This document shows positions 24,901 to 60,863 of a stretch of 64,000 nt of DNA, in pieces. The first letter of the stretch is position 1; every line of letters starts with the position of its first letter. The position numbers and the translations under genes were made by a program. The DNA comes from a virus. The DNA is taken from positions 1-64,000 of IMG/VR virus record IMGVR_UViG_3300028025_006304, one strand, 5' to 3'. Below the pieces are notes generated by a model, which had not been told where the DNA came from, ran no database searches, and saw nothing but the letters and a program-made list of their open reading frames with translations.

Positions 24901-25385
24901 GTTGCAGATGCTTGTGTTGCATTGTTCCATATAATGTGACCTGATAGTGGATCTCCAGTTGTTATAGTAGTTTTTGCTTGATAGTTAAAAAATGCATTAG
25001 AACTTCCTGCAGCACCTTGAGCACCTTGAGCACCTTGTGGGCCAGTAGCTCCTTGGGCACCCTGTGAACCTTGTGCCCCAGTGGCACCTTGAGCTCCGGT
25101 AGCACCTTGTGCACCAGTAGCGCCTTGTGCTCCTTGTGCTCCTGTGGCTCCTTGTGCGCCTTGAGCTCCTTGTGGACCTACAACTGTAGGTGTAGCTGCA
25201 AATTGGGCAAATGAAGCACTGAGAGCATATGAAGAAGATAATGCTTGATTAGCAAATGAAGCAGTTCCTAAAAATGAACCTACAAATGATCCTGTAAAGG
25301 AAGATGCGGTAACATTAGTTGTTACACTTAAAGAATTTAGGGAAGCATCTGACCCTGATAGTATGACTTTTTTCCAACTTGGCAT
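21984..25385 (-). CDS. Collagen-like fibre protein with C-terminal S74 chaperone domain
   Basis: 1133 aa; Gly-X-Y blocks of 19 and 255 triplets; [12 protein letters not shown]...GFIADEI. Confidence 0.9.
22362..24656 (-). repeat. Degenerate 9-nt tandem repeat encoding 255 Gly-X-Y triplets
   Basis: 2295 nt; mostly GAQ, GAT, GPT and GPQ codon triplets; locally GC-rich. Confidence 0.9.
25008..25178 (-). repeat. Short collagen block (19 triplets)
   Basis: 171 nt from GPQ to GAA. Confidence 0.85.
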
Positions 25386-32142: not shown

Positions 32143-33903
32143 TTACAAGCTGTTAAGACCCGAAACAAAAATTTTCGCATAAAATTCTGGACGTAACATC
32201 TTCTTAGCGTAACGAGTCAAGAGACCTTTTCTTGGAGTGAAGGTTTCTGGATCGTAGATAAGAGGAGTCATGATCAACGGAATGTAAGGAGCAAACACAG
32301 CACCGGCTTCCAAGAACTGAGTACCACGGAATCCCATAAGGATTGTGTTTTCAGTCATGTAAGGATTTTTGTAAACTGTGTAGCGGCTATTCAATTGACC
32401 AGCTTTCTGTACACCAAACGCGTATTCCATTTTGTCTGCAGAGCCATCAGAGTTTGAAGCGAATCCTGGGATTGATTCAATTACTGTAGCTACAGTTGGA
32501 GAACATACTAAGAAGTTTGCACCACCACGAAGGGTTAACTGGTGAATCTTGTTAGAAAGTTTCTGCATCTTAGTACCAAGGGTTTGGAACCACTGGCCTT
32601 GAGTGTTGTAGAAACCTGTTTGGCTAGTAGAAGTTGGGAAAGCAAATCCGTCTGCACTACCGTTGTAAACACCGTTGTTCAATACAGTCCAGTACTCAGT
32701 ACCAGCAGCTGCGTCTTCGATCAACATGTCAAGAATTTCGAGGTCGATTTCAAGAGAAATGTACTCGCTCATGATGTTTGTTACTTCAGCTTCTGCGTCA
32801 AGTGCCTGATAGGCATTAAGATCTTGGGCGAATTCTGGAGTCCAAACAGCCTTTAACTTCTTGGTCTTGGCAACAATTGCTTGTGACTGAAGTTGGATGT
32901 TGATTTCTGGGATTACAATTTCAGTAGCGCTTTCAGCGTTAGGAACAGCGAATGCGTTTCCAGCTTCGAAATCACCTACGTTGTAAGGAGACATTTGAGT
33001 AGCCTTGTTGTAGAATACAGTTAATGAACCAGACAAGTTAGCAGCAGATACAGTTTGAGAAGCTGTTACGTAGAAACTGATAGTACCATTTGTGTAGTTG
33101 TAGGTAGTAAAGTTAGGCAACAATGAAGCATCGGTAAGAGCAAATCCACCTACAGAGTAAGTAGGAACGAATCCTCTAACTGCGTCGGGGTCAAATGCTG
33201 TTAATGAAGCTGTAGGAACTACAATCTCGTATACTTGACCAGCAACAATAGAAGCTGATAGATCAGAGTCATAGTTTAAGTCTGCCCATGAAGCATCAGC
33301 GAATGAAGCAGTACCGGCACCAACAGTTGGTAGAGCACCACCATCGGCTGAACCTGTCAAGAATACAGAAGCTGAGAATTGGTTAGTTGAATAGGTAAAT
33401 CTTCCAGCACCGTAAAGACCACCGTTATTATTCTCACCTAAGTTATTAGTGTTTGTAGAGAATGGGTAGTTACCATTGGCTGAACCAGTGTTACCATAGA
33501 GTGATTTTCCAGCAGTGAATGGATTCTTAGTAGTTCCGTATTGGAAATCTAAGAAGAATACAAGACCGGAAGGTAGGTTCATAGGCTGTACAGAAACGAA
33601 TTCTTTAGCAGCGATTTGACCGAATACCTTACGTACTAATGGAAGAGCAATACCAGCCCATTCGGCACCTGTGCCGACTGAGAAGTTACCGAAACCAGTA
33701 CCACCACCTACAGAAGATTGCTCTACTACTAGTTGCTTGGCTTGGTTTTCTAGGATTAAAGACATGTTGTTCTTGTCGGTCTCCGAGCGAAGTCCTTCAA
33801 GTAAACCTGTTCTATCCCATTTTGAGGCTAATTTAGCCGCGTCAGACTGCATATTCTTCCAACCGGAAGCTGCAGACTCGAGTAATTGTTGTACTTGTGA
33901 CAT
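32143..33903 (-). CDS. Major capsid protein (gp23-like)
   Basis: LPLVRKVF, VQPMNLPSGLVF, KLKAVWTPEFAQDL, FAPYIPL, P..GLLTRY. Confidence 0.95.
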   Translation of the reverse strand: MSQVQQLLESAASGWKNMQSDAAKLASKWDRTGLLEGLRSETDKNNMSLILENQAKQLVVEQSSVGGGTGFGNFSVGTGAEWAGIALPLVRKVFGQIAAKEFVSVQPMNLPSGLVFFLDFQYGTTKNPFTAGKSLYGNTGSANGNYPFSTNTNNLGENNNGGLYGAGRFTYSTNQFSASVFLTGSADGGALPTVGAGTASFADASWADLNYDSDLSASIVAGQVYEIVVPTASLTAFDPDAVRGFVPTYSVGGFALTDASLLPNFTTYNYTNGTISFYVTASQTVSAANLSGSLTVFYNKATQMSPYNVGDFEAGNAFAVPNAESATEIVIPEINIQLQSQAIVAKTKKLKAVWTPEFAQDLNAYQALDAEAEVTNIMSEYISLEIDLEILDMLIEDAAAGTEYWTVLNNGVYNGSADGFAFPTSTSQTGFYNTQGQWFQTLGTKMQKLSNKIHQLTLRGGANFLVCSPTVATVIESIPGFASNSDGSADKMEYAFGVQKAGQLNSRYTVYKNPYMTENTILMGFRGTQFLEAGAVFAPYIPLIMTPLIYDPETFTPRKGLLTRYAKKMLRPEFYAKIFVSGLNSL

Positions 33904-35349: not shown

Positions 35350-35958
35350 TTAGATGATTGGGCAGGTACCTTTTGCACAGAGAATTTCTGTTAAAATTCC
35401 ACTTGCTTTACTGTAATGGTTAATTGTGTTGTATTCTTTTCCTTCTTTTACTAGATGCATAAATGAACCTGGGTTGGATGGGGTTGATACAAAATCCCAA
35501 CATAGTAGTTCAAAATCGTCTTGTACTTCCATCATGCCTTCTCCCATTGGTTTAAGTGAGCCCATACCACGGGAAGAAACACCTACCATTACTCCACTGT
35601 CGATAAGTGCTTTAAGGATATTCCCGGAGACAGTCGGTAAAATTTCGATTTTACCTACAACGTGATCACCATCCCACCATATGTCGCGGATGATGTGGCA
35701 AACGTTTTTTAAATTGATTATTGACGAATCTGGGTGGTCTAATTCACCTGTGGCTCTGCTTTGTTTAACCACATCCATGTATTTGTCTATTTCACGCTGC
35801 CAAAGGTCTTTAGCGTAATATCTACCGTTACCATTTTTAACTTGAGCAGTAGCTAAGATACCTTCAACAAGGGGATTACCAGCTGGAGATTTGGTACCTT
35901 CAGTTAATTGAACAGGGTTAACCTGAAACGCTTGGGTTTCAATTAATACTTGTTTCAT
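35350..35958 (-). CDS. Prohead maturation protease (gp21-like)
   Basis: NGNGRYY, GELDHP, GVSSRGMGS, DFVSTPS. Confidence 0.92.
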   Translation of the reverse strand: MKQVLIETQAFQVNPVQLTEGTKSPAGNPLVEGILATAQVKNGNGRYYAKDLWQREIDKYMDVVKQSRATGELDHPDSSIINLKNVCHIIRDIWWDGDHVVGKIEILPTVSGNILKALIDSGVMVGVSSRGMGSLKPMGEGMMEVQDDFELLCWDFVSTPSNPGSFMHLVKEGKEYNTINHYSKASGILTEILCAKGTCPII

Positions 35959-38595: not shown

Positions 38596-39246
38596 TTATT
38601 TATATTGCCATTTATATCCGTATGCTGTTTTCCTTTTACCACTACAACACTCACATATAGCTCCACTATGTTTACTTAAAGATAAACTTGCTGAAAGCAT
38701 TGAATCAAATTCGGTTATAAAATTATTATTAAGGTCTAATTGAATTATTTTTTTTCTTTTAGGTGAGGGTTTACCAATTTTTGAAAGACGTATTTTTTCA
38801 TTTCTTTCTTTGTTATTAATTAACCAAGGTAAAGTTCCTCTTTTTTTTCCTTTTCTACTCAAAGATTGGGAAATTTTCCACTTTAAACTTTTGGGTTGTT
38901 TTGCGGATGCACTTTTTTTAGATTTTGTTTCTAATGTGTCTTTAACTCCTTTTTTCCCTTCACCTCCATTAGTTAAGTTAACTAAACTCCCTTCATGTAA
39001 ATCTTTTCTACCATAAAGTAATATAAATTCAATTTCTTTTTGACATGCTTCATTCCAAGAAAGATCATTTAAAATTATATCAACTTTATAAGAAGTTTTA
39101 TTAGTAACATTATACCAATATTGATTTCGATTAACCACTTCATTAGCTCTTTTATATAAACCTATTTTAGAGGGTAAATCTTCTCCTATCCCTACATAAA
39201 ATGGAGAGTTAGTATCTAATCTAATATGTCTGTAAATATAAGCCAT
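38596..39246 (-). CDS. GIY-YIG-like homing endonuclease with NUMOD-type DNA-binding tail
   Basis: YIY...FYVGIG...RA; C-terminal IIQLDL...EFDS...AS...ICECCSGKRKTAYGYKW (NUMOD1-like). Confidence 0.8.
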   Translation of the reverse strand: MAYIYRHIRLDTNSPFYVGIGEDLPSKIGLYKRANEVVNRNQYWYNVTNKTSYKVDIILNDLSWNEACQKEIEFILLYGRKDLHEGSLVNLTNGGEGKKGVKDTLETKSKKSASAKQPKSLKWKISQSLSRKGKKRGTLPWLINNKERNEKIRLSKIGKPSPKRKKIIQLDLNNNFITEFDSMLSASLSLSKHSGAICECCSGKRKTAYGYKWQYK

Positions 39247-47661: not shown

Positions 47662-47934
47662 TCAGTCTAAATGTATTTTGACTTTTAAGGTGTCTTCACC
47701 TTTCCAAGCCCTGTGCCATTTGTGACGCATCATAAATATACGCATTTCGGGTTCAAGGTCAAAAGGTAACTGATCATCAAATTGCAGTTTCCAACCTTTT
47801 CCTACCTCTAGAATCTCTATTGTACGATTCTCATCATCGCGGTGCCAGAGTAGTTCAATCGGATCTATATTATCGTCGAACTCTCTAATAATGTATTGTT
47901 CTGTAACCTCTAAATCTTTATACGGTTTTGTCAT
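47662..47934 (-). CDS. Hypothetical cupin-like protein
   Basis: WHRD...HKWHR; start moved to MTKPY, overlapping the upstream stop. Confidence 0.55.
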   Translation of the reverse strand: MTKPYKDLEVTEQYIIREFDDNIDPIELLWHRDDENRTIEILEVGKGWKLQFDDQLPFDLEPEMRIFMMRHKWHRAWKGEDTLKVKIHLD

Positions 47935-48343
47935 CTGTAAGGGGACCTCCAACAACCCAAGCATCACAAGTCCGAGCTGCTGCACATTTAAATTTTAAGA
48001 ATCTACAATATCCTAATTTACCGGCTTTAATTACATCAAATGGATCTTCGGTACCTTCATCATTACCTATTCCTTTAGCTATACAATCTAATGTTTTAGT
48101 TGTAATATCAAATGCAGCACAGTTACCACAGAGTGATGTTTTAGCTTCTTCTACAGAATCAAGCTTCCACATGTCTACTTTAGCTTGCCAGAATTTGTTA
48201 TTTGGTTCATTAGGATTTAATGGACCATAACCATATTCATTGATTGCCTTTTGTCTGTTTTGAAGGTTAAGTTCAATGTTTTGAGTTGGAGCTGGACATT
48301 TGTTTAGTTCAGCTTCACTTAGTATGTTGACTAGTTTTATCAT
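47918..48343 (-). CDS. Cys-rich hypothetical protein with MIKLVNILSE leader
   Basis: CGNCAAF, GYCRFLKFKC...TCDAW. Confidence 0.65.
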   Translation of the reverse strand: MIKLVNILSEAELNKCPAPTQNIELNLQNRQKAINEYGYGPLNPNEPNNKFWQAKVDMWKLDSVEEAKTSLCGNCAAFDITTKTLDCIAKGIGNDEGTEDPFDVIKAGKLGYCRFLKFKCAAARTCDAWVVGGPLTDDKTV

Positions 48344-48657
48344 TTTTCTCTGATAAGTAATTCACCTAATACCTCTAAACGTCCAACTTCACGTTGAAAT
48401 TCGGTTTGAGTCATTCCTAGTGATATTTTCTTTAGGGTTTGATCAAATTCTTTTTTGGCTGCTTCTTTGTCAAATTTACCTTCAGCTGCTTTTTTATAAT
48501 ATGGGGCTTTTACTTTAAAGTGATGCCATGTTAATAGAGATAAACCGCCTTTTTCTTCAGCGTTTTCAGCAATTTTAGCTGCTCCTTTACCTCGTGTTAC
48601 AGCAAAATCCTCAAATGATTCTTTTGCTTCTTGTAGTATATCTAATAGATTAATCAT
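48340..48657 (-). CDS. Hypothetical protein with MINLLDILQE leader
   Basis: Start moved to the Met just after the upstream stop (48659). Confidence 0.6.
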   Translation of the reverse strand: MINLLDILQEAKESFEDFAVTRGKGAAKIAENAEEKGGLSLLTWHHFKVKAPYYKKAAEGKFDKEAAKKEFDQTLKKISLGMTQTEFQREVGRLEVLGELLIREK

Positions 48658-48658
48658 A

Positions 48659-49495
48659 TCACCAAAATCCTGTAAAATTTGATTTAAGACCCAATAACTT
48701 TGCGTATCTTGGGAGCCTACATGACCAGAATGATGCTTTTGTTTTGTCTTTTTTATTTTTACAATCGTGGCGGGCCGCAAATGCTCTACGTGCCTCTGGA
48801 TTGTTTATCTTAGCTGATAAACCTGAAGTATCACCAAATGATACTTTTTTAATCTTTTTAGTGCGTGGGTCGCGAACGTAAACATAGAATTTTTTAGAGC
48901 CACCGCGTTTTGGTTTGCCAATTGGGGGTGTTTTCTTTTTTTTATCTGCTTCTTCTAATTTTTTAGAGATTTTGTATAATCCCATTGACTCCATTCGCTC
49001 TAAACCATTTAAAGATACATTATTTACAGTTAAATTATTGTTTCCTACATTTAGACTTTTCATTTGATTAGGAGCTAACATTTTAGAAAAGGTTGGAATT
49101 GCTTTAAACCTATCTAAAAGTTTATTATTTTCAAAAGTAAGCGTAATTTCGTGGGTATTTTTTTTATCTGCTTCTTCTAATTCAATTTCTTCCATTATGA
49201 AATCTAATGGAACTTTTTTACCTTCGTATAAACCAAAATGACCTAAATCTGTTTCAGTTAGTATCTCTAAATCATCTCCTTGTACCTCAATGATGTTGCG
49301 GCTGTATAAAGCGCGTGCTTCTGCCCATAAATTGAAATAGCTTTCCGAGCCTGCACGATATACGTGCTCTGTAAGAGGTCGTGCGTTATCTAAGTGATAT
49401 TTCAACCCCTCGGAAAGGATTGCTTTTGGGGCTACACTTTCGTTTAGCACCACTGGTCTTTTTGAATCGCAAGTATTGCAGCCGCAGTCACACAT
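48659..49495 (-). CDS. Modular hypothetical protein (DUF6321-like C-terminus)
   Basis: KKFYVYV...KVSFGD...F.ARH.C...FWSCR; internal module bounded by LEEADKK twice. Confidence 0.65.
   Translation of the reverse strand: MCDCGCNTCDSKRPVVLNESVAPKAILSEGLKYHLDNARPLTEHVYRAGSESYFNLWAEARALYSRNIIEVQGDDLEILTETDLGHFGLYEGKKVPLDFIMEEIELEEADKKNTHEITLTFENNKLLDRFKAIPTFSKMLAPNQMKSLNVGNNNLTVNNVSLNGLERMESMGLYKISKKLEEADKKKKTPPIGKPKRGGSKKFYVYVRDPRTKKIKKVSFGDTSGLSAKINNPEARRAFAARHDCKNKKDKTKASFWSCRLPRYAKLLGLKSNFTGFW
48936..49182. repeat. Perfect 25-bp direct repeat pair
   Basis: ttttttttatctgcttcttctaatt at 48936-48960 and 49158-49182 (222 bp apart, in frame). Confidence 0.85.
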
Positions 49496-49496
49496 A

Positions 49497-50471
49497 TTAT
49501 TTAAATAATCTAGGGAAGTTCATACCTAATTCAGAAGAAGAAACATAAACACCGTTTAATATTCTTTCACTATCTATATTATCTACTACAGTATCATTCA
49601 TAACATAGAATTTACCTTGTCCGTTTTCGCTTACGTTAAGTACATATCCTACGTCTTTACCCATTCTAGGTTTTTTTAGCAATTTAGTTTTTAAAATTTG
49701 CTTAAGCAATTTACCTGCACCTTCTTGGGGGCTGGCAGTTGGTGCTAAATCTAATCTAGAATATAAAGAATCAATACGCTTGTATAAAGGTTCAAACGCA
49801 TCTATGTCTCTTAATTGTTTGTTTTTCTCAAACATAGACATAATTTCGAAAGCTGGAAGTATATCGTTTCCTTTAAAGTTACCTGCGTTGATTGTAACAT
49901 CAGATTCTTCATCGAATTTGCTAAATAAAGTTAAAATTGCTATTACACTATTTAGTAATGCTATATTTGCTTTATCGCCTGCAAATTTACCTAAGGTAAT
50001 ATTAGAGGTATCGTATGATTTAATTTCGCATCCAAAACCATCAATGGTTAAATCCGGATCTTCTCCTTTTCTAGAATCGGTAACGTTGTGTTTATTAACG
50101 TTAAATTCAAAAGCCCAGTAAGTAGCAATTTCTCCTTTACCAGCACCTGCTGTTGGGATATCGCTGTCTTTTTTAAGTGGGAGGATTGGATATAAAATTT
50201 TCCAAATTTCTTCGTCTTTACCACCTAAATTAAAATCTTCACCTAGTTCTAAAGGAGTATTACAATCCGGAATTTTTTCACCTTCTTTTAAACCTAAAGC
50301 TTTACGAATCCTAACATTATAGTCTACTTGTGCCTCGTTAATAATAATTTCACCCATAAAATCTTCGGCTAGTTCAAATAACATAGCTTTATCTTTTGGG
50401 TCATTAATATCAGGGTATCCTTTTGGGAACTTCCAAGCTACACTTTTGATGAATTTATCTAATTGATTCAT
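49497..50471 (-). CDS. Hypothetical protein, possible PD-(D/E)xK fold
   Basis: GKGEIA...PDLTIDG...EIKSY. Confidence 0.55.
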   Translation of the reverse strand: MNQLDKFIKSVAWKFPKGYPDINDPKDKAMLFELAEDFMGEIIINEAQVDYNVRIRKALGLKEGEKIPDCNTPLELGEDFNLGGKDEEIWKILYPILPLKKDSDIPTAGAGKGEIATYWAFEFNVNKHNVTDSRKGEDPDLTIDGFGCEIKSYDTSNITLGKFAGDKANIALLNSVIAILTLFSKFDEESDVTINAGNFKGNDILPAFEIMSMFEKNKQLRDIDAFEPLYKRIDSLYSRLDLAPTASPQEGAGKLLKQILKTKLLKKPRMGKDVGYVLNVSENGQGKFYVMNDTVVDNIDSERILNGVYVSSSELGMNFPRLFK

Positions 50472-50914
50472 TATACTTCGGGTTCTGCTGCTGGTTCTTC
50501 TACTGGTGTTTCTGGAGTTGCTGTTTCAGCTCCTTCCGCCGGTGCTTCTGCTTTGCTTCCGTAACGTAATATACGAGAGATAGATTCGCAAGCCGACTCT
50601 TCTTCGTTCAAATTAAGTAGATAGTATTTTTTACCTTCTACTTGAGCAATCCAGCTTTTGGGTGTGTAAATAAGATAAAAATCTTGTCCGTTTTTTAGAT
50701 TGATACGGAATGTTGTAGGACGAGGAGCAACCCAATCAATTGAGGCTAAAAAGTAGTCAAAATCTGGAGATAATAGATCTACTATAACCGCTTTAAGTTC
50801 TGGGAATTTTGTTAGCTCATCGTATTCGGCAGCAGCAACGTTAGCCTTGAGTCTGCCTCTATAGACATCCTTGGTTAACGTTCTGATTTTGGCTACGAGT
50901 TCTTCACGAGTCAT
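50471..50914 (-). CDS. Hypothetical protein
   Basis: 147 aa with Pro/Glu/Ala-rich tail. Confidence 0.6.
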   Translation of the reverse strand: MTREELVAKIRTLTKDVYRGRLKANVAAAEYDELTKFPELKAVIVDLLSPDFDYFLASIDWVAPRPTTFRINLKNGQDFYLIYTPKSWIAQVEGKKYYLLNLNEEESACESISRILRYGSKAEAPAEGAETATPETPVEEPAAEPEV

Positions 50915-52083
50915 TATCCTCTAGCTTTTTGTTTTGCGGTTGGACCTTTACCACCACCTTTTGCTTTATATGAAGCTACAGCGCCAGCAATTGCTTTAGC
51001 GGCTTTTTCTGATTTGCCTCCTTTTTTAAGTTTACCAACAAGTTTTTCGAATGATTCGTCTAATTCAGCTGTTGCTTTTTTAAAGTAGCCTTTTGGTAAA
51101 CCTTCTGATACAGTACCCATAAATGCTCTAGCTTCGTCTTCGTCTGTAAATATTTTTTCTTTTTTACCGTCCATAGTACGGTAAGTAACAATCCAAAAAC
51201 GACCTTCTGGTTCTAGACTAGCGAGTTCGTTATGTCCTAAGTTACCTTCTTCGATTTCGTCTTCTAGAGGTTCAGAAGGAATATTTGGGATAATATCTTC
51301 ACCCGTAGCAACACCTACCATTGCATCGATTTCTGGTTCTTTTAATTCGAACTCAAGATAATGCTTAGCGCTAGAAACCATATTTTTAGCTGTGGTAATT
51401 TTTGCTTGCCACCATGCTGGGAAATCTACTTCACCTTCACCTTCAAATTGATCTACCATCTGGTAAAGTTCCATAGCGTATTTTCCAATACGATATAGTT
51501 CGCTTTTGATCATGTGTGGTTCGTCGTCTTCGTGGCCTAAGTCTAAATCCTCACCCAAACCTAAAGGTTTTCCTTCGTCATCATATGACATAGGAATTTC
51601 ATCTTCATCATCTAATTGAGCTTGGTCTGGGTTATAATCTTCGCCTACCATTTTACCACCAATATACTCTTCGTAATCAACAATAAAATCATCTTCACTG
51701 TAATCAACATATCCTTCTACCCCATTGAGGCGAATATCGTTAACTAATGATTTAACATAAGTAGCCCAATCTCTATCTTCAGGACCCTCCTTTAATTCAA
51801 TGCCTCTACCCTTAAGGATATCTGCTTTGGTCACTTTGCCATCGCCAGTTAAATCAGGAAATGATTTTTTCTTTTCGTTCATTAAGGCTGCTCTAACTAG
51901 TTCTTTTAGATTTGATTTTTCCATTTCAGATTCTGCTACTTTTTTTGCTATGTTTGTGGCGCGACCATACATTACTTTCTCAGCGTCTGGACCATAACGC
52001 TTAACAAGACTATGCTTGTTTTTTTTCATCTTTTGGATGACGTCTTCGCGTTTGGCGAGTTCGGCTGAAGAAAGTTTTGCCAT
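50914..52083 (-). CDS. Modular acidic protein with a dockerin/EF-hand-like loop
   Basis: PDLTGDGKVTKAD; many [ILV]-x-E sites between segments. Confidence 0.6.
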   Translation of the reverse strand: MAKLSSAELAKREDVIQKMKKNKHSLVKRYGPDAEKVMYGRATNIAKKVAESEMEKSNLKELVRAALMNEKKKSFPDLTGDGKVTKADILKGRGIELKEGPEDRDWATYVKSLVNDIRLNGVEGYVDYSEDDFIVDYEEYIGGKMVGEDYNPDQAQLDDEDEIPMSYDDEGKPLGLGEDLDLGHEDDEPHMIKSELYRIGKYAMELYQMVDQFEGEGEVDFPAWWQAKITTAKNMVSSAKHYLEFELKEPEIDAMVGVATGEDIIPNIPSEPLEDEIEEGNLGHNELASLEPEGRFWIVTYRTMDGKKEKIFTDEDEARAFMGTVSEGLPKGYFKKATAELDESFEKLVGKLKKGGKSEKAAKAIAGAVASYKAKGGGKGPTAKQKARG

Positions 52084-52084
52084 T

Positions 52085-52258
52085 TTACTTTTGCTTGTCT
52101 TCTGCAGTAGATGCCTTGCGGTATTCTGTTGCTAGTTTTTTAAGCTCACCTGCTGCTTTACGAGCACGTCCGTGTGCTGCTTTAGCTGTTTTGTGGTGTT
52201 CGATAGTTAGGGTTTCTAAAACCGCTACCATTTTGTCGTGTAGTTCTTGTGATGTCAT
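52085..52258 (-). CDS. Histone H1-like (Hc1-type) small basic protein, 57 aa (not in the ORF track)
   Basis: MTSQELHDKMVAVLETLTIEHHKTAKAAHGRARKAAGELKKLATEYRKASTAEDKQK; KAA..RARK...ELKK...EYRK.S pattern. Confidence 0.7.
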   Translation of the reverse strand: MTSQELHDKMVAVLETLTIEHHKTAKAAHGRARKAAGELKKLATEYRKASTAEDKQK

Positions 52259-52267
52259 ATCTTTTAT

Positions 52268-52906
52268 TTATTTAATTTTATTCCAAAGTGGGAAAGCTAA
52301 ACCTTCGTTTAATTTTTCTCCGGCTTTTTTTCCTTTTTCGTATTCGTATCTTTCGTCGTCGCCAACGTATTTTTCTTCTTGATCTTCAACCTCGTCTACT
52401 TTTGCTCTTGTTGGCTCGTCTCCTGCAACTACAAAGTCGCGAGTAAAGAATGTGATTGTATTACCAACCTGAGTGATAAATTTTTGATCACCAAATTCTT
52501 CTGCTTGTGCTCTTAGAGTTTCAAGTGTGTCAAGAATTTTTCTTGTTTCGTTTGGAAGTGAAGATAAAGAAACGATTTTCTTGTCTACTACGATCGAGTC
52601 ATTTTTTTCTTCTCCACCGTCTGTAGTTTCTGCTTCAGCGTCTACTTCAATATCTGTTTCTTCTTCGTCTCCTTTAGCTTCTGCTAGATAAGGATCAACT
52701 GCAGTTCCAGTGATACGAGCTAAGATTTCTTCAGCTGATTCTTCTTCGTCGGCTTCGTCTAGATTAGCGATCATTTCGTCTAGATCTTCTTCGTATAGAT
52801 CATCGTACATACCACCTAAAGCAGCATCGTCGTCTTGAGCATTAGTAAAGTCTGCTTCTGATAGGTAAGCAGCCTTGATCATTTCTTTTAAGTCGGATTT
52901 TTTCAT
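52268..52906 (-). CDS. Acidic hypothetical protein with MKKSDLKEMIK leader
   Basis: 212 aa; LSEA, LDEA, LAEA, LNEG. Confidence 0.6.
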   Translation of the reverse strand: MKKSDLKEMIKAAYLSEADFTNAQDDDAALGGMYDDLYEEDLDEMIANLDEADEEESAEEILARITGTAVDPYLAEAKGDEEETDIEVDAEAETTDGGEEKNDSIVVDKKIVSLSSLPNETRKILDTLETLRAQAEEFGDQKFITQVGNTITFFTRDFVVAGDEPTRAKVDEVEDQEEKYVGDDERYEYEKGKKAGEKLNEGLAFPLWNKIK

Positions 52907-52928
52907 TGCAATGAATTTGAGTATATGT

Positions 52929-52937
52929 TATAAATAT
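52929..52937 (-). promoter_or_regulatory. ATATTTATA late-promoter-like motif
   Basis: Upstream of 52268..52906. Confidence 0.6.
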
Positions 52938-52941
52938 GTGT

Positions 52942-53223
52942 TTATTTCCTAAAGCGTACTTTGGCCTTAGGTGTGTTCGATACAAACTGTTTACCTTTTT
53001 TACTACCAGCTACTTTTTTTCTTGCGGTAGCTGCTCTTTGTGCTTTAGTTAAGCGTTGTGCTTTTGCTTTTGGTAAGCAACGTGTTGTTGCTTGACCTTT
53101 TTTCATCGTACCACAAGGACCTGTTATATTACCTGCAGTATCAATACGCACCCAGTTCTCTTTTTTGAACCAATCGCGTAGCGATTCTGTGATTATCTCT
53201 TGTAGACGTTCTTGGGTTATCAT
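52942..53223 (-). CDS. Small basic protein (DUF5872-like)
   Basis: LRDWFKKENW...RCLPKAKA. Confidence 0.6.
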   Translation of the reverse strand: MITQERLQEIITESLRDWFKKENWVRIDTAGNITGPCGTMKKGQATTRCLPKAKAQRLTKAQRAATARKKVAGSKKGKQFVSNTPKAKVRFRK

Positions 53224-53906
53224 CCCTTCATTTGCCCTTTACATACTTTAACAGCACGGCCTGAAAGATAGGCGGATGATTTCTCACCAGCAGCCATTCT
53301 TTTCTTAATATATGCTTTACCTTTTGGGCAAAGTTCCTCGTAGATAACACTTTCACCTAAACGTGATGTTTTTGCTTCATCTAAATCCTGGATGATTTTA
53401 TTTAGGATTCTACTCATTGTATCCGGAGTAAGACCAGGTGTTTCACCTTTTGGATTTTCGGGTGATACTAGTTGTGGAGAGTAACCTACTTCTTCTTTAA
53501 TTTCGACGTTTGGGTCAAGAGCTCTATAGGCGTCTTCAAGGGCTTTTTTTAAGATATTAATAGCAGGTGTATTATCTCTATTTTTAGAAAAAATTTGAGC
53601 TGCTAATTTAGCCGCTAAAGTTTCAATTTGCTTTTTTGGAACTAGAAGAGTCTCATCTACTTGCTCACCTCCACCAACTAAATCGTTGTAATCTTCCATT
53701 GAAAGAAGACCTCTCAATTTAACTGCCTCAATAGCGCGTTCAGTTACATTGTGAAGGTCCATATCTGTTTTAGCATCTTCTCTAGCGTATTCTAACATAC
53801 GAATAAAGAGAGGAACATCCATAGCGATTATATCGGTTGGATCTTCTTGTTGAGCTTCTCCCATTGGTTTAGAGAAAAACTCTTGTACTCTTTTTAGGTC
53901 TTCCAT
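53220..53906 (-). CDS. Modular hypothetical protein
   Basis: MDVPLFIRMLEYAREDA module; C-terminal LCPKG...SAYLSG.AVKVCKG module. Confidence 0.6.
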   Translation of the reverse strand: MEDLKRVQEFFSKPMGEAQQEDPTDIIAMDVPLFIRMLEYAREDAKTDMDLHNVTERAIEAVKLRGLLSMEDYNDLVGGGEQVDETLLVPKKQIETLAAKLAAQIFSKNRDNTPAINILKKALEDAYRALDPNVEIKEEVGYSPQLVSPENPKGETPGLTPDTMSRILNKIIQDLDEAKTSRLGESVIYEELCPKGKAYIKKRMAAGEKSSAYLSGRAVKVCKGQMKG

Positions 53907-54361
53907 TATTTGGCAAATTTAATACGTGGGTAGTAATCTCTTTCTCCTGGATCGTAATCGTATCCAGAATCGGATTGATCTCGGTCTACTTTGTAACCTT
54001 TACTTTCAGCCCATTTGATCATTTCTTCAAATGTATCATCGCTAATATCATCTTTACGGTAGATGGTTATACCATACATGTTAATAGCTGCTCTGTCTCC
54101 AAATTTTTTTTTAAATTCTTTTTCAAGAGAACTATTATCTACAGATTCACCTAATGTTGAATCAACTTTACTCATGCTATTAGTGATGAAATTACGCATT
54201 TTATCGAGGTACGCGGCTGCATCAGCACCGTTGGCGTCTTTTAAATAACCAATGATTATATCCAAATATTCATCGTATTTAGATCTATTTTCTTCAATAC
54301 CGGCCTCGGCTAGATATCGTTTTTTGTTCCATTTGGCTACGTCAAAGCTCATAATATGCAA
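53906..54361 (-). CDS. Hypothetical protein
   Basis: 151 aa; FDVAKWNKKRYLAE leader. Confidence 0.55.
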   Translation of the reverse strand: MHIMSFDVAKWNKKRYLAEAGIEENRSKYDEYLDIIIGYLKDANGADAAAYLDKMRNFITNSMSKVDSTLGESVDNSSLEKEFKKKFGDRAAINMYGITIYRKDDISDDTFEEMIKWAESKGYKVDRDQSDSGYDYDPGERDYYPRIKFAK

Positions 54362-54380
54362 ATTTATATGGTGATAAATA

Positions 54381-54962
54381 TTAGGTTTTCTTTAAACTTT
54401 GCAAATATTTAATAGTTTCCTCTTTTGACTCAAGGAGTTTATTTTTGACTGAACCTGTCCATTTTTCTACGTCACCTGCCTCCGTAATATACGACTGGAT
54501 AGCATTGTGTTTGATTTCCTCGTTCATCCATAGCTCAAACGTTTCTATAATACCTTCAATATCTGAATTGTAGATTGTTTTTTCATATTCTTCCCAAAGT
54601 CCTTCTCTACGGATAGCTGCTTCAAAATCTATTTGGCAGTTAAAACAGCGTTTATACATGCTAAACCACTTTTTATCCAAATGTGGTTTCATTGTTTTCT
54701 TACAGGAAGGACAAAAAATGGGGAAATTAACCGCTTCACGAGCTTTATCAAGTTTTGTAACATTTTGTTTAATGCCATCCTTAATAGTCCACGTCTTATC
54801 TTCTTGATCCCATATATCTCCTTCGATATGTGGACCTTCTTGTTCTTTTGTAAAACCGACTGAAGTTGAGGATTTATCTGCATATTTTCCTTTTACTAGG
54901 TTTCTTAGACGTTGTACATCTTTTTCCTGGAATTGTTTTTTTAGAACATTTTCTTTACTCAT
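54381..54962 (-). CDS. Zn-ribbon-containing hypothetical protein
   Basis: CPSC...CFNC. Confidence 0.6.
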   Translation of the reverse strand: MSKENVLKKQFQEKDVQRLRNLVKGKYADKSSTSVGFTKEQEGPHIEGDIWDQEDKTWTIKDGIKQNVTKLDKAREAVNFPIFCPSCKKTMKPHLDKKWFSMYKRCFNCQIDFEAAIRREGLWEEYEKTIYNSDIEGIIETFELWMNEEIKHNAIQSYITEAGDVEKWTGSVKNKLLESKEETIKYLQSLKKT

Positions 54963-57493
54963 AAACCTAAGTCTTGTAACTGTTTGATTGTGTTAGCTGC
55001 TGAAGTGTGTAATATACCAATTCCACCATTAGCATTCCATGAATCGATAGTATCTTTTCTATCGTCTATTAAAATTTTATTTTGCCCAGCAAAATCGGCT
55101 TTCCTTTTAGCGGAACGAAAATATAATTTACGCATGTTAGGTAAACGTTGAACCCACTCGGTTTTACCTTGCATTGATTCGTTATTGTCTAACTTATAGC
55201 GTTCCTCAAATGGGATATCGAAATTAACAGAGGGGGCAGTTAAAACGTATGGGTTATATTCTTTGATATAGTCCCAAAGTTGTTTTCCATCGGGCATCCA
55301 ATCTAGGTTAGCCCAATATGAACGTTCGGGGATGTCTTTTTCTTTTAGACTGTTTCTAAATAAACTCCAAAATTCGTTTTTACCTTGTGAATCGGCGTGT
55401 TGAGTACTTACACCTGTTAGTTCTTTATACCCCTCATCGAAGTCCACTAACACACCATCCATATCACAAAATATCACATATTTCTTCTCTCTCATTTCCC
55501 CATCATTTTCATTAACACCCGTATTATGAAGGTACGAGATCTCTTCTAGGGGGGCAAGTTTAGCTACGAGTGCTGAGCCTTCTTTTTCAAATTTTGCTTT
55601 AGGGTATACTTTTTTGATGAATGCTTGGTAGAGATTATCGCGTTGGTTTCCCAAAACATCTTCACCTTTTTTAGGTGCTGGGTTATAAATTAACGCGTTA
55701 GTGTTTTTAAAGTCGGGGATGAGTTTGATTCCGGTTTGGATTATGTCTACTATTGTAGCCATCACTCGGAATACCTCTCCTCTGTTTATTACAGCACTAT
55801 CTGATTTACTTACACCCTTCTCTCCAGCTCCAAATCCGACCTCCATTCCATTTATATCCTCTCCTGTCTCATCATCCTCGTAATTGAGGGTTGTCAATTC
55901 AACCTCATATTCGATTCCACTGTCTGTAGTAAAACCAAACTCATAATCGCCTGGGTTAGTATTGGTAATTTCCCATTCATAGGGTTTTGAGGTGGCTTCT
56001 CCAACCTCTTGTAAACCCATAGCCAATTCACGAGCGTATTGGTTTAAACCGAATGGGTCTTTTACAGTTTTAAGTTTAATATCTGAGTTTTGAAGAAATT
56101 GTCCTTTAGGTGCTTTTTTAGGTTCAGAAGAAACCAACGAACCCTCATTTTGTAAACTATCAGTCCAGTTACGGAATGTCATAGTACCCTTTAGGTTAGC
56201 TTCAGCTTCAATATCGTTTAGATGATCGTCCTCTTGAGTATTTGTAGTTGTAATATCTCCCAATCTACCCTCCAGATTTTGGATATGGTGAATCATCTCA
56301 TGCGCGTAAGAACGCACAATATCTTTGGGATGACGCCCGTAAGTGTATAGGGTGATAGACTTATTGATCGGATCATAGTACGCGGTTTTACCCAAGAATT
56401 CTTCGGCATTAACCATATCATCACCTACTAGCTCAATGCTGGGAACAGGATCAATATTATATCCTTTCCCACGCATGTAATTAGTTAACTCGGCTATTTT
56501 TTCGAGTATGTCAATAGATGGGATAGTGTTTTCTTTTAACGGTTTATACCCTGAACCAAATGGAGCTGATTTACCATCATGGTTAGGTGCTACGTTTTCT
56601 TTTTTTAGACGTTGGGTTTTTTCTTTAGATGCTTCTTTTCTTTGTTCAGCATAATCTAAAGCTGTTTTTAAACGTCTTTTAACCTCAGGATCTTTTGCTC
56701 TTTCGTAAGCTGCTCTAACACGCTGGTGAATTAAATTAATAATTTGAGATTGGCGAGCGTGTGATTTTGATTTAAAAGATTCTTTAGATAGTGTGTCTAT
56801 AATATCTTGTTTAGTAGAGAATTTAACACCTACAGTATCGCTTGGATCTTCGTCTGTGTATAATCTACGAGATGATCCTTTTGGTTTTTTACCTGTACCT
56901 GTTTTAGGATCTCCTTCTTTTAAAACGTTTGGTTCTAAAATATTGTAAATATCTTCCTTTTCGTTAGCTGGAATCTCAGTAGGGAGATAAGTAAAGAATT
57001 TTTCTTTATCCCCTTTTTGAAGTGCTTTACGAGCGTTTGTTCCACTCATATCACCAGCTGGGGTTTTAATTACTCGAACCTCTATGTTAGGGTATTTTTC
57101 TTCTACCCCCTTGGTGCGAGAGATAATATCTTGTAAATCATCTTCTCTACCTTCACGGTAACCCAAAACAAAATATACTTTCTCGTCTGGGTGGTTTTTA
57201 GCATAACGTAAGATATCTCCGATTGGGGAAGCTGATGGTTCTATTTGAACTTTAGATGGGAGCAATTCCTTGTAAATATCCCATATTTGCATAGATTGTT
57301 CTTGTTCGATTCCATCTCTAACACCCCCACCAACATAGATTAAAAATTTGTCTATGTCTTTAAAATCTTTTAAAGCTGTTTTAACTAAGTCAAAGTGACC
57401 TTTGGTGGGTGGTTTAAAACCACCCCCATAGATTGCTGTAACGGATTTTCCGTCTATTAGCTCGTTAACTAAAAACTTAGTTAATTCGTCCAT
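54959..57493 (-). CDS. Multidomain protein: HxGH nucleotidyltransferase + zincin-like domain + HAD 5'(3')-nucleotidase
   Basis: GGFKPPTKGH and MSGTNARK; RSYAHEMIHH; CDMDGVLVDF...LIDD. Confidence 0.75.
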   Translation of the reverse strand: MDELTKFLVNELIDGKSVTAIYGGGFKPPTKGHFDLVKTALKDFKDIDKFLIYVGGGVRDGIEQEQSMQIWDIYKELLPSKVQIEPSASPIGDILRYAKNHPDEKVYFVLGYREGREDDLQDIISRTKGVEEKYPNIEVRVIKTPAGDMSGTNARKALQKGDKEKFFTYLPTEIPANEKEDIYNILEPNVLKEGDPKTGTGKKPKGSSRRLYTDEDPSDTVGVKFSTKQDIIDTLSKESFKSKSHARQSQIINLIHQRVRAAYERAKDPEVKRRLKTALDYAEQRKEASKEKTQRLKKENVAPNHDGKSAPFGSGYKPLKENTIPSIDILEKIAELTNYMRGKGYNIDPVPSIELVGDDMVNAEEFLGKTAYYDPINKSITLYTYGRHPKDIVRSYAHEMIHHIQNLEGRLGDITTTNTQEDDHLNDIEAEANLKGTMTFRNWTDSLQNEGSLVSSEPKKAPKGQFLQNSDIKLKTVKDPFGLNQYARELAMGLQEVGEATSKPYEWEITNTNPGDYEFGFTTDSGIEYEVELTTLNYEDDETGEDINGMEVGFGAGEKGVSKSDSAVINRGEVFRVMATIVDIIQTGIKLIPDFKNTNALIYNPAPKKGEDVLGNQRDNLYQAFIKKVYPKAKFEKEGSALVAKLAPLEEISYLHNTGVNENDGEMREKKYVIFCDMDGVLVDFDEGYKELTGVSTQHADSQGKNEFWSLFRNSLKEKDIPERSYWANLDWMPDGKQLWDYIKEYNPYVLTAPSVNFDIPFEERYKLDNNESMQGKTEWVQRLPNMRKLYFRSAKRKADFAGQNKILIDDRKDTIDSWNANGGIGILHTSAANTIKQLQDLGL

Positions 57494-57856
57494 TTACTGA
57501 AGCTTCATGATAAGCTCTTTTGCCTTAGCTTTCTTATCAGCGATTGCTGTTTTAGCTGCTCTATACTCTTCCATTTCGCGCTTAAGAGCTTCTTTCTGCA
57601 TTTCGTACTCTTTCATAGCTGTTTTAGCATGTTTGCGAGCCGCTGATTTATTAGTACCTGCATAAGCAGCTGCAATCTCGTTCATGTCAATAGTATCGTA
57701 GATTGAAGCAGGACGGATCATATCATCCATAGACATACCTCTCATTGGTTTCATTACAAGAATGATTTCGCCAATCTCGTTATATGGCTCTTTCATTTCC
57801 ATTGTTTCTGCTTCAAGGGCTTCCTTAATAAGGGATTTTAATACTGATTTTTTCAT
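57494..57856 (-). CDS. Hypothetical protein with MKKSVLKSLIKE leader
   Basis: 120 aa, basic helical C-terminus. Confidence 0.6.
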   Translation of the reverse strand: MKKSVLKSLIKEALEAETMEMKEPYNEIGEIILVMKPMRGMSMDDMIRPASIYDTIDMNEIAAAYAGTNKSAARKHAKTAMKEYEMQKEALKREMEEYRAAKTAIADKKAKAKELIMKLQ

Positions 57857-58656
57857 GAGTTAAGGAATTGTTTTATTTTAGACTGAGCCTCTGGGATAGA
57901 GACTGTTTGTTGAATAATATTTTGTACGTTTTCTTTGTTGCGTAATGATAGAATTTCCTGTTCTAGTTTTTCTTTATCAGCTCTGGATTTAGCTGCTTCT
58001 TTTTCTGTTTTTGGTTTGGTATCTTGTGGTTTGAAAGGATCAATATAACGTTTAATTATATCTTCTAAACTTCTTTTACCAAACGGATCCTTGTCTTTTG
58101 TAGTAGCTACAAAGTTTTGACCAAATAAGTTAAGGTACGGGATAAAGTTTTTTGTTACGTTTGCCCATGTTTGCATTACAATACCTGGCATCAAACTTCT
58201 ATCCTCACCAGCTGAACGCTCGAATCTATCTTCGTTTTTCTTAAGTGATTTTTCAAGTGAAGAGTATACAAATACCATCATTACATCATATCCAGCTTCC
58301 TCTAATGTTTCCTTTAATTTAACGGTTTCATTATATGATGCTGCTGTACCGTCAATGACAATATTCCCACGCTTTTCAATTTCTTGTTTTAACTCAGCCT
58401 TATAAGGTTCTTTAGCTGATGCCATTGCTATAGCTGCTCCACTTCTACCAGCAGCATCTGCTCTTTTTAGATCAAGTGAGATGCCAGCGTTGCGGAGATT
58501 TTTAATAAAATAATCATCAATATTTAGTACCGTTAAACCAAGATCACGGATTATCTCATCTGTAACAGATGATTTTCCAGCACCGGGAGCCCCAGCAAGT
58601 ATAATAGCTTTAGGAGAACCTTGTACCTCCTTTAGTAATCTTATCAGTGAAATCAT
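57853..58656 (-). CDS. Zeta-toxin-like/AAA_33 P-loop kinase
   Basis: AIILAGAPGAGKS, NIDD, VIDGT, GYDVMMVFV. Confidence 0.75.
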   Translation of the reverse strand: MISLIRLLKEVQGSPKAIILAGAPGAGKSSVTDEIIRDLGLTVLNIDDYFIKNLRNAGISLDLKRADAAGRSGAAIAMASAKEPYKAELKQEIEKRGNIVIDGTAASYNETVKLKETLEEAGYDVMMVFVYSSLEKSLKKNEDRFERSAGEDRSLMPGIVMQTWANVTKNFIPYLNLFGQNFVATTKDKDPFGKRSLEDIIKRYIDPFKPQDTKPKTEKEAAKSRADKEKLEQEILSLRNKENVQNIIQQTVSIPEAQSKIKQFLNS

Positions 58657-58671
58657 ATACGCGCGTTTACG

Positions 58672-58680
58672 TATAAATAT
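58672..58680 (-). promoter_or_regulatory. ATATTTATA late-promoter-like motif
   Basis: Upstream of the zeta-like kinase gene. Confidence 0.6.
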
Positions 58681-60388: not shown

Positions 60389-60421
60389 AAGATAATAAAG
60401 AAAGCTTGGATAACCAAGCTT
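60389..60421 (-). promoter_or_regulatory. Hairpin overlapping a promoter candidate upstream of primase
   Basis: AAGCTTGG-4nt-CCAAGCTT; TTGGTT-17nt-TATCTT ending 6 nt before the ATG. Confidence 0.55.
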
Positions 60422-60863
60422 ACTCTATAAAGTCTTTTCTGAAGAATTTCCCGAGCACATTATCGTTGTACCATTTTTCCGGTTCCTCCAATACCCCCAT
60501 TGTAAATAAATATTTGCACTCGTAATAGGTAAGTAGCTTTTTACTGGGAACCAACTTTAAGATGACTCTCTCGAACTCGTCTTGTCTACCTTGCTTGAGT
60601 AACTCTAAGATTGGTTTAGCTGAACCATAGTATGTTTTCCAATCGCTTTCCTTTTGGATTACCTCGGTGGTTGATTTTCTACCCCTACCAGATTGCTCAG
60701 CGAGTTGTTTTTTGGTGAGTTTTTTCTTCACGTTGTGGTATAGTACTTTCTTACCAATGTAAGAAAATCCACTTGGAACGTGAGTAACCTGATAAATAAA
60801 ACCATAGGTATCTGCTGGGAAATCTTCTAAGCTAGATACCTCTTTATTATTATATAACCACAT
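60420..60863 (-). CDS. GIY-YIG-like (Seg-type) protein
   Basis: YGFIY...YIGKK...WKTYYGS...E...YN.N. Confidence 0.7.
   Translation of the reverse strand: MWLYNNKEVSSLEDFPADTYGFIYQVTHVPSGFSYIGKKVLYHNVKKKLTKKQLAEQSGRGRKSTTEVIQKESDWKTYYGSAKPILELLKQGRQDEFERVILKLVPSKKLLTYYECKYLFTMGVLEEPEKWYNDNVLGKFFRKDFIE

Follow-up and report, generated by a model that had tools for sequence, protein, structure and literature searches.

A multi-enzyme polyprotein of a T4-like phage with hydrophobic-x-Glu sites at its joints, a candidate capsid-targeted cargo of the prohead protease

The window analysed here is the first 64 kb (64,000 nt) of the 118.6-kb IMG/VR virus record IMGVR_UViG_3300028025_006304, which is estimated to be 69 % complete. 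Its source is a T4-like phage of aquatic Bacteroidota, the GC content is 31–38 %, and nearly all genes share one strand. The subject of this study is a gene at 54959–57493 for an 844-aa polyprotein. An earlier reading of the nucleotide sequence (the original prediction) had described it as a single open reading frame (ORF) for a chain of enzyme domains with cleavage-like joints, fused for co-packaging and released by the prohead protease. The locus does hold one ORF of 844 codons, on the minus strand, and all of the motifs that had been listed were found in the polyprotein with the order and spacing claimed: VLKEG at residue 190, RRLYTDED at 209, LKKEN at 296, PLKEN at 318, HEMIH at 398, LQNEG at 447, LQEVGEA at 494, LEEI at 649, VNEN at 660 and DMDGV at 677. 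Some descriptions required amendment. The motif of the N-terminal transferase, given as HxGH, is of the T/HxGH type but reads TKGH (residue 30), with T in place of H. The proposed joints LKKEN and LQNEG are present, but LKKE (q296–299, where q denotes a position in this query polyprotein) and LQNE (q447–450) have the form hydrophobic-x-x-Glu and not the canonical hydrophobic-x-Glu. Finally, there is a domain where an uncharacterised beta-rich one had been noted, but it can be characterised, as a GNAT fold.

The polyprotein is made up of an 11-aa leader followed by five modules, namely a nucleotidyltransferase (A), a basic helical module (B), a zincin (C), a GNAT-fold module (D) and an NT5C-type HAD phosphatase (E). 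In an AlphaFold2 (AF2) model built on a 44-sequence alignment the domains are confident, the predicted template modelling score (pTM) of the whole chain is 0.33, and no stable inter-domain interface is predicted. Segments with a predicted local distance difference test score (pLDDT) below 50 are found at residues 10–14, 191–215, 299–325, 449–501, 605–615 and 648–670; hence every joint, the boundaries of which the original prediction had proposed to check by structure prediction, falls below this value.

The leader, MDELTKFLVNE (residues 1–11; 57461–57493, on the minus strand as are all of the segments that follow), is amphipathic, ends in V-N-E and is a candidate capsid-targeting sequence (CTS). 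Module A (residues 12–193; 56915–57460) is a HIGH-motif (TKGH) nucleotidyltransferase with the PPAT/NadD fold, modelled with a pLDDT of approximately 85–92 and matching PPAT and NadD in Foldseek with a TM score of up to 0.82 (E 1e-7). The TKGH (30) and SGTxxR (150–155) motifs, read directly, are nearly invariant. Pfam and NCBIfam returned only sub-threshold matches to the N-terminal motif, and a sequence search of solved structures likewise returned only N-terminal-motif matches for module A and nothing useful for module E. Scores against the equivalog models TIGR00482 (23 bits, cut-off 112) and TIGR01510 (23 bits, cut-off 103) were far below the NMNAT/PPAT cut-offs, and module A was therefore assigned only to the superfamily, as a HIGH-motif nucleotidyltransferase, with no call at the level of substrate. 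Module B (residues 194–321; 56531–56914) is basic (pI 9.9) and helical, with AF2 helices at 228–299 followed by a conserved 22-aa spacer (q300–321), and is bounded by the sites LKE193 and LKE321. It is missing from many close homologues, and the deletion spans exactly site to site.

Module C (residues 322–450; 56144–56530) is a putative minimal zincin with an HExxH motif (H398, E399, H402), the residues of which are near-invariant among relatives, and conserved E429/E431. As module A dominated the Foldseek results of the whole model, residues 322–648 were folded separately. The best structural matches of module C (VIA-align) were to Wss1 (5xbn, Z 8.2), SPRTN (6mdx, Z 7.5) and ArdC (6sna, Z 6.7), Z values that are marginal alone, and the ESM Atlas gave a lead to IrrE/M78. 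No Pfam peptidase family was matched by this module, and Pfam MPTase-PolyVal was among those that gave no match. Segment c (residues 451–496; 56006–56143) is disordered (pLDDT <50 at 449–478 and 484–501) apart from one conserved helix (q476–496), and ends at LQE496. Module D (residues 497–651; 55541–56005) is a GNAT-fold domain in a variable slot. It has dozens of GNAT matches (Z 6.5–7.8), including EctA and the TacT/AtaT toxins, and a match to the GNAT-like domain of ICL2 (Foldseek E 8e-6), though no clear Q/RxxGxG/A acetyl-CoA pyrophosphate-binding loop was found on reading module D, and it has no Pfam match. An 11-aa spacer (residues 652–662; 55508–55540; pLDDT <50 at 648–670) between the sites LEE651 and VNE662 leads to module E (residues 663–844; 54962–55507), a probable NT5C-type HAD phosphatase with motif I reading DMDGV, a DD motif IV and a pLDDT of 82–96. 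It matches phrog_2643 (5'-3' deoxyribonucleotidase) with E 7e-27; the score against Pfam NT5C (PF06941), 19 bits, lies under the 24.8 gathering cut-off. For modules B, C and D, no Pfam or NCBIfam family was found even at E up to 10.

Relatives of the polyprotein are numerous. A word-index search yielded 4609 matches among the candidates scored, and an exhaustive search yielded 6129 cluster representatives at E ≤1e-3. Those compared include 120 close homologues, 150 representatives of 50 %-identity clusters and 80 related viral loci. The original prediction had named splitting or re-ordering of homologues at the joints as a check, and modules are indeed re-ordered, swapped, inserted, lost or made into separate genes exactly there, so that the architecture of the family varies. 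Conservation in the close homologues extends to A, C and E, whereas B may be present or absent and the inserts in the D slot differ; module D is replaced by other modules in most relatives, and one relative has a complete Fe/Mn superoxide dismutase (SOD) inserted between B and C. Among the 150 representatives, module A nearly always opens the chain and E usually closes it, and the orders seen include ABCcDE, ADBCE, AC[x]E, A[x]C[x]B[x]E and E..C..DB. Partner modules in relatives comprise ART-PolyVal, Tox-ART-HYD1, GNAT, Zeta_toxin, NTP_transf_2 (Pol-beta NTase), RegB-like RNase, SOD, DUF6934 and DUF5661.

A single HExxH motif is present in 133 of the 150 representatives and none in 15. An initial indication that the zincin occurs in two to four copies per protein was rejected, as nearly all of the extra matches are short junction elements (the q299–321 spacer and the q431–447 helix), which are duplicated beside inserted modules; only two of the 150 representatives have two full zincin copies. 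Short proteins related to module C that stand alone look, for the most part, as if they were fragments or the results of frameshifts, with a start at an internal Met. Four look genuine, and all four have hydrophobic-x-Glu at residues 6–12, though they are too few to weigh much. In a cultured relative, Flavobacterium phage immuto (vB_FspM_immuto), the corresponding protein gp088 (5173–7896 of L001) is annotated as NMNAT/NadR and has about 290 additional N-terminal residues with a Pol-beta-type GDLD motif. The module in its D slot has a second HExxH-like motif, HEIEH, which is also found in the consensus of the commonest D-slot variant.

The joints themselves are marked by the hydrophobic-x-Glu tripeptide. 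Seven such sites (q11, 193, 321, 450, 496, 651 and 662) are kept in 50–89 % of the 150 representatives (56 % for the leader site, 87 % for q496 and approximately 50–55 % for q651 and q662; at q450, most homologues read LNE or LQE), while the nine intradomain copies of the query are kept in 3–19 %. The query total of 18 does not exceed chance (17.6 ± 3.4 in shuffled sequences) and the signal thus lies in the placement and conservation of the sites. All seven of the conserved sites are in linkers with pLDDT <50, which make up 17 % of the protein, compared to two of 11 non-conserved ones (hypergeometric p ~0.001). Indels among the 120 close homologues start right after a hydrophobic-x-Glu and end with one. 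In the divergent representatives, the motif lies no more than 2 residues from alignment boundaries in 20–23 % of cases versus 9.7 % at random positions, about a 2-fold difference; control motifs in which P1 was Asp or Lys, or P3 was polar, were not enriched. A pooled logo of 346 sites has L/V/I at P3 (62, 21 and 16 %, respectively), N/K/E/Q at P2 and Glu at P1. Within modules A, C and E, the motif is depleted (observed/expected 0.71, 0.42 and 0.81), and the Asp version is not.

If the sites are used to load and process cargo, a module that leaves the polyprotein would be expected to acquire a leader of its own. NT5C has been split off as an overlapping downstream ORF in approximately 23 of the 80 related viral loci, and 20 of 22 distinct split forms begin with a 13-aa leader of the MYKLTDLYKQIKE type that ends in the motif. 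This type of leader is missing from the fused form of NT5C, which retains no more than the bare sites. In phage immuto, NT5C is also a separate gene, with a 15-aa leader ending in L-L-E-E. Hence, split-off modules gain a motif-ended N-terminal leader, and this prediction of the co-packaging idea held. A hydrophobic-x-Glu is also present at residues 7–16 in 85 of 110 divergent representatives of the polyprotein, as part of a conserved amphipathic leader. As a rule, each polypeptide thus seems to carry a single leader, as co-packaging predicts.

The two genes that precede the polyprotein gene in its operon also have such leaders. The first (57853–58656, minus strand) encodes a Zeta-toxin-like P-loop kinase (Pfam Zeta_toxin, E 1e-15) with the 10-aa leader MISLIRLLKE, which is nearly universal in homologues from 76 loci. 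The second (57494–57856, minus strand) encodes a 120-aa protein with no family matches and a 12-aa leader ending in I-K-E. The kinase is itself found as a fused module inside the polyproteins P0225, where it is flanked by IKE sites, and P0258, which is a true kinase-A-C fusion; among the 270 family proteins examined, none contains any other operon neighbour as a module. Motif-ended leaders are also present on the scaffold and the capsid protein. In the genome as a whole, a leader regular expression matched 35 of 158 ORFs versus 23 ± 4.3, a modest enrichment that is not diagnostic alone.

These findings bear on whether the chain is cut at all. The polyprotein could be an uncleaved beads-on-a-string protein, packaged or cytoplasmic, in which the tripeptides are kept for helix capping, through linker composition in an AT-rich genome or as microhomology favouring recombination. 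The chance-level total of motifs and the K/E-rich linkers are in keeping with this, as are the junction elements duplicated beside inserts, which suggest recombination at linkers, and it has precedents in phage N4 vRNAP and ArdC, which are delivered unprocessed (PMC5512222). However, it accounts poorly for the preference for Glu rather than Asp and that for L/V/I at P3, for the depletion of the motif inside domains and for the leaders borne by split-off modules, and we regard an uncleaved chain as unlikely.

A candidate for the processing enzyme is encoded in the window. The genome has a T4-like head module with portal, core proteins, a Peptidase_S77 protease, an acidic scaffold and a gp23-like capsid protein. 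The protease gene (35350–35958, minus strand) belongs to the T4 gp21 family of prohead proteases (PF03420, E 1e-29, above the cut-off), and its product shares 35 % identity with T4 gp21 (E 4e-23). Phage immuto also encodes a gp21-family protease. The propeptide of the gp23-like major capsid protein (32143–33903, minus strand; phrog_138) served as a positive control for the type of site. T4 gp23 is cut after Glu65, which releases a 65-residue propeptide (PMC9026906), and this cut site, LTE65|A, aligns with VVE61|Q of the capsid protein found here.

Processing of a polyvalent protein by its own zincin (module C), in cis or in trans and before packaging or after injection, would leave no role for the prohead protease. 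The zincin, with a single HExxH in 133 of 150 representatives, is the most constant partner in the family. It resembles ArdC, Wss1 and SprT-type peptidases in fold, and autoproteolysis by embedded metallopeptidases has been proposed by Iyer et al. (PMC5512222). Against this, the site motif is that of gp21-type proteases and aligns with the known T4 gp23 site, the same motif ends the leaders of proteins with no zincin in cis (the kinase, the 120-aa protein, split NT5C, the scaffold and the capsid protein), and 15 of 150 representatives have no HExxH. Self-processing seems to us improbable.

The operon of kinase, 120-aa and polyprotein genes is headed by an intergenic gap (58657–58679, minus strand) that contains a promoter-like motif, TATTTATA on the sense strand. 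Immediately ahead of the ATG of the kinase gene is a TATACG...CGTATA inverted repeat, with which TATTTATA overlaps. The genome has 23 copies of ATATTTATA on the sense strand and none on the antisense strand, and the genes that it precedes include those for the sheath, the portal and other structural proteins as well as this operon. Of 60 related loci, 33 have the exact 8-mer in this gap, compared to a background of 0.00026 per nt.

The position of the operon raises the question of whether the polyprotein is simply an ordinary cytoplasmic enzyme of nucleotide or NAD metabolism (NadR/NMNAT-like), with its domains in one pathway and expressed with the replication genes. Its synteny beside the primase and exonuclease genes is conserved, nucleotidyltransferase, kinase and phosphatase could share one nucleotide pathway, and gp088 of immuto is annotated as NMNAT. 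Yet the operon is set apart from the exonuclease gene by a promoter-like motif of its own, which structural genes share, module order and content vary, and the partners include ADP-ribosyltransferases (ARTs), SOD and a RegB-like RNase. Moreover, no inter-domain interface is predicted and scores are far from the NMNAT and PPAT equivalog cut-offs. A metabolic role of this kind is very unlikely.

As far as genes and their comparison can tell, the original prediction of fusion for co-packaging and release by the prohead protease is supported. We consider it probable, with some reserve, that the polyprotein is a capsid-targeted cargo that is cut by the prohead protease into separate injected proteins. 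From the features described above we infer targeting, cleavage, retention in the head, injection and each of the enzymatic activities of the polyprotein, and the course of events may be as follows. A late-type promoter would drive transcription of the polyprotein gene along with the genes for the kinase and the 120-aa protein. Its 11-residue amphipathic leader would target it to the scaffolding core of the prohead, in the manner of a T4 CTS, and the fusion would serve co-packaging because one leader carries all of the modules. The gp21-type prohead protease would then cut after the Glu of hydrophobic-x-Glu, at the leader and in the disordered linkers. The predicted products, separate proteins of ~14–21 kDa that correspond to modules A to E, would remain inside the head and be delivered along with the DNA into the next host cell. 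Their action there, probably in host takeover or counter-defence, would precede all phage gene expression.

A number of observations weigh against this reading. Two of the joints in the query (LKKE and LQNE) are non-canonical, and in module A hydrophobic-x-Glu at q48–50 and q71–73 is kept in about half of the relatives. The homologues are interrelated, so that the statistics on conservation and enrichment are drawn from non-independent events. The polyprotein gene adjoins the primase and exonuclease genes and is outside the head module, and the label 'late' for the putative promoter is taken only from the association of its motif with structural genes. Leaderless polyproteins, with no in-frame upstream extension, make up approximately 14 % of the representatives and are found in seven of about 68 loci.

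In L014, L020, L021, L024, L040, L046 and L055, the leaderless polyprotein ORF overlaps the stop codon of the upstream kinase gene by 4–8 nt. The overlapped kinase gene bears a leader in six of these seven loci; the exception is L040, where the ORF as called is shorter and has none at its start. Piggy-back packaging or a frameshift fusion is a possibility that these overlaps raise.

The closest parallel to the proposed route is found in T4. The T4 CTS is 10–19 aa long, processing is determined by the residues at P3 and P1 (Glu), and the internal proteins are diverse defence proteins with only the CTS in common (PMC9026906, PMC3012670). The system described here resembles T4 IPI, IPII, IPIII and Alt in having a 10–15-aa amphipathic leader ending in hydrophobic-x-Glu and a gp21-family protease in the same phage, as well as diverse, fast-evolving cargo that has only the leader/site in common, and relatives carry ADP-ribosyltransferase modules, as does Alt. 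It differs in that T4 cargo proteins have a single function and lose terminal propeptides, whereas at least five unrelated domains are found here in one chain with an internal site at every joint, and the same modules are fused or split among relatives; packaging is in this case predicted from the genes. Homology in sequence to T4 IPs or Alt was not detected, though no search aimed at it was made.

The polyvalent proteins described by Iyer, Burroughs, Anand, de Souza and Aravind in 2017 (PMC5512222) also combine disparate catalytic domains in one chain with highly variable architectures. Zincin, ART-PolyVal, GNAT, kinase and Pol-beta NTase domains are used both by them and by this family, and delivery with the DNA was predicted for them. 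Though release was there attributed to embedded peptidases, with no defined linker sites, the joints here carry a prohead-protease motif and the chain a CTS-like leader. A search of the text of PMC5512222 found no linkers, HxGH transferases or superoxide dismutase, and nucleotidases only in an unrelated mention.

In the giant phages phiKZ, 201phi2-1 and SPN3US, gp21-related proteases cut many head proteins after Glu at a short motif, and multiple sites per substrate, as seen here, are common (PMC5694885, PMC9026906). Those substrates, unlike the polyprotein, lose long propeptides or become fragments of structural or ejection proteins, and chains of recognisable unrelated enzymes delimited by sites are not described in these reports. 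A literature search on prohead-protease polyproteins also found no description of such multi-enzyme chains.

A wider proposal, on which we are evenly divided, is that a widespread group of T4-like aquatic phages uses plug-in cargo. Enzyme modules flanked by sites (nucleotidyltransferase, zincin, GNAT, NT5C, kinase, ART and SOD modules are found in the repertoire) would fuse to, or split from, a leader-bearing carrier, one leader would load a changeable cocktail, the head protease would process it in trans, and cassettes would be exchanged at the linkers that encode the sites, a true polyprotein strategy in a dsDNA phage. If capsid loading and cutting are confirmed, the T4 internal-protein paradigm would be widened beyond single small proteins to polyproteins of several enzymes that the prohead protease cuts in trans, and the polyvalent protein class would gain a concrete release mechanism with defined sites. 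With more than 6000 cluster representatives in the family, the modules constitute a catalogue of candidate pre-injected takeover or counter-defence enzymes from abundant aquatic phages, for which immuto is available as a cultured relative. Efforts to engineer phage capsids that carry protein cargo could also draw on the combination of leader and linker sites.

Downstream of the polyprotein gene, a run of ORFs at 47918–54962 (minus strand) has no family matches, and most have short leaders ending in hydrophobic-x-Glu. Homologues of these ORFs are found in 4–64 of the 80 related loci. At some loci, a zincin module is found in proteins of 387–479 aa whose leader is that of the 228-aa ORF, and a 110-aa ORF (in L053) begins with the q300–321 spacer of the polyprotein. 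The block may constitute one shuffling pool of cargo genes.

Several small ORFs at approximately 91–105 kb of the record, outside the window, are preceded by a different, CGTATATTTA-like motif, and these motifs may be promoters of another class. A gene for a SegE-type GIY-YIG homing endonuclease (60420–60863, minus strand; Pfam E 5e-26) lies beside the primase gene, and an ORF beside the portal gene (38596–39246, minus strand) reads like a putative GIY-YIG protein. Finally, an ORF of 1133 aa at 21984–25385 (minus strand) encodes a collagen-like tail fibre with many repeat matches to PHROG tail-fibre families, and sits in a block of 43–54 % GC compared to ~33 % elsewhere in the window.

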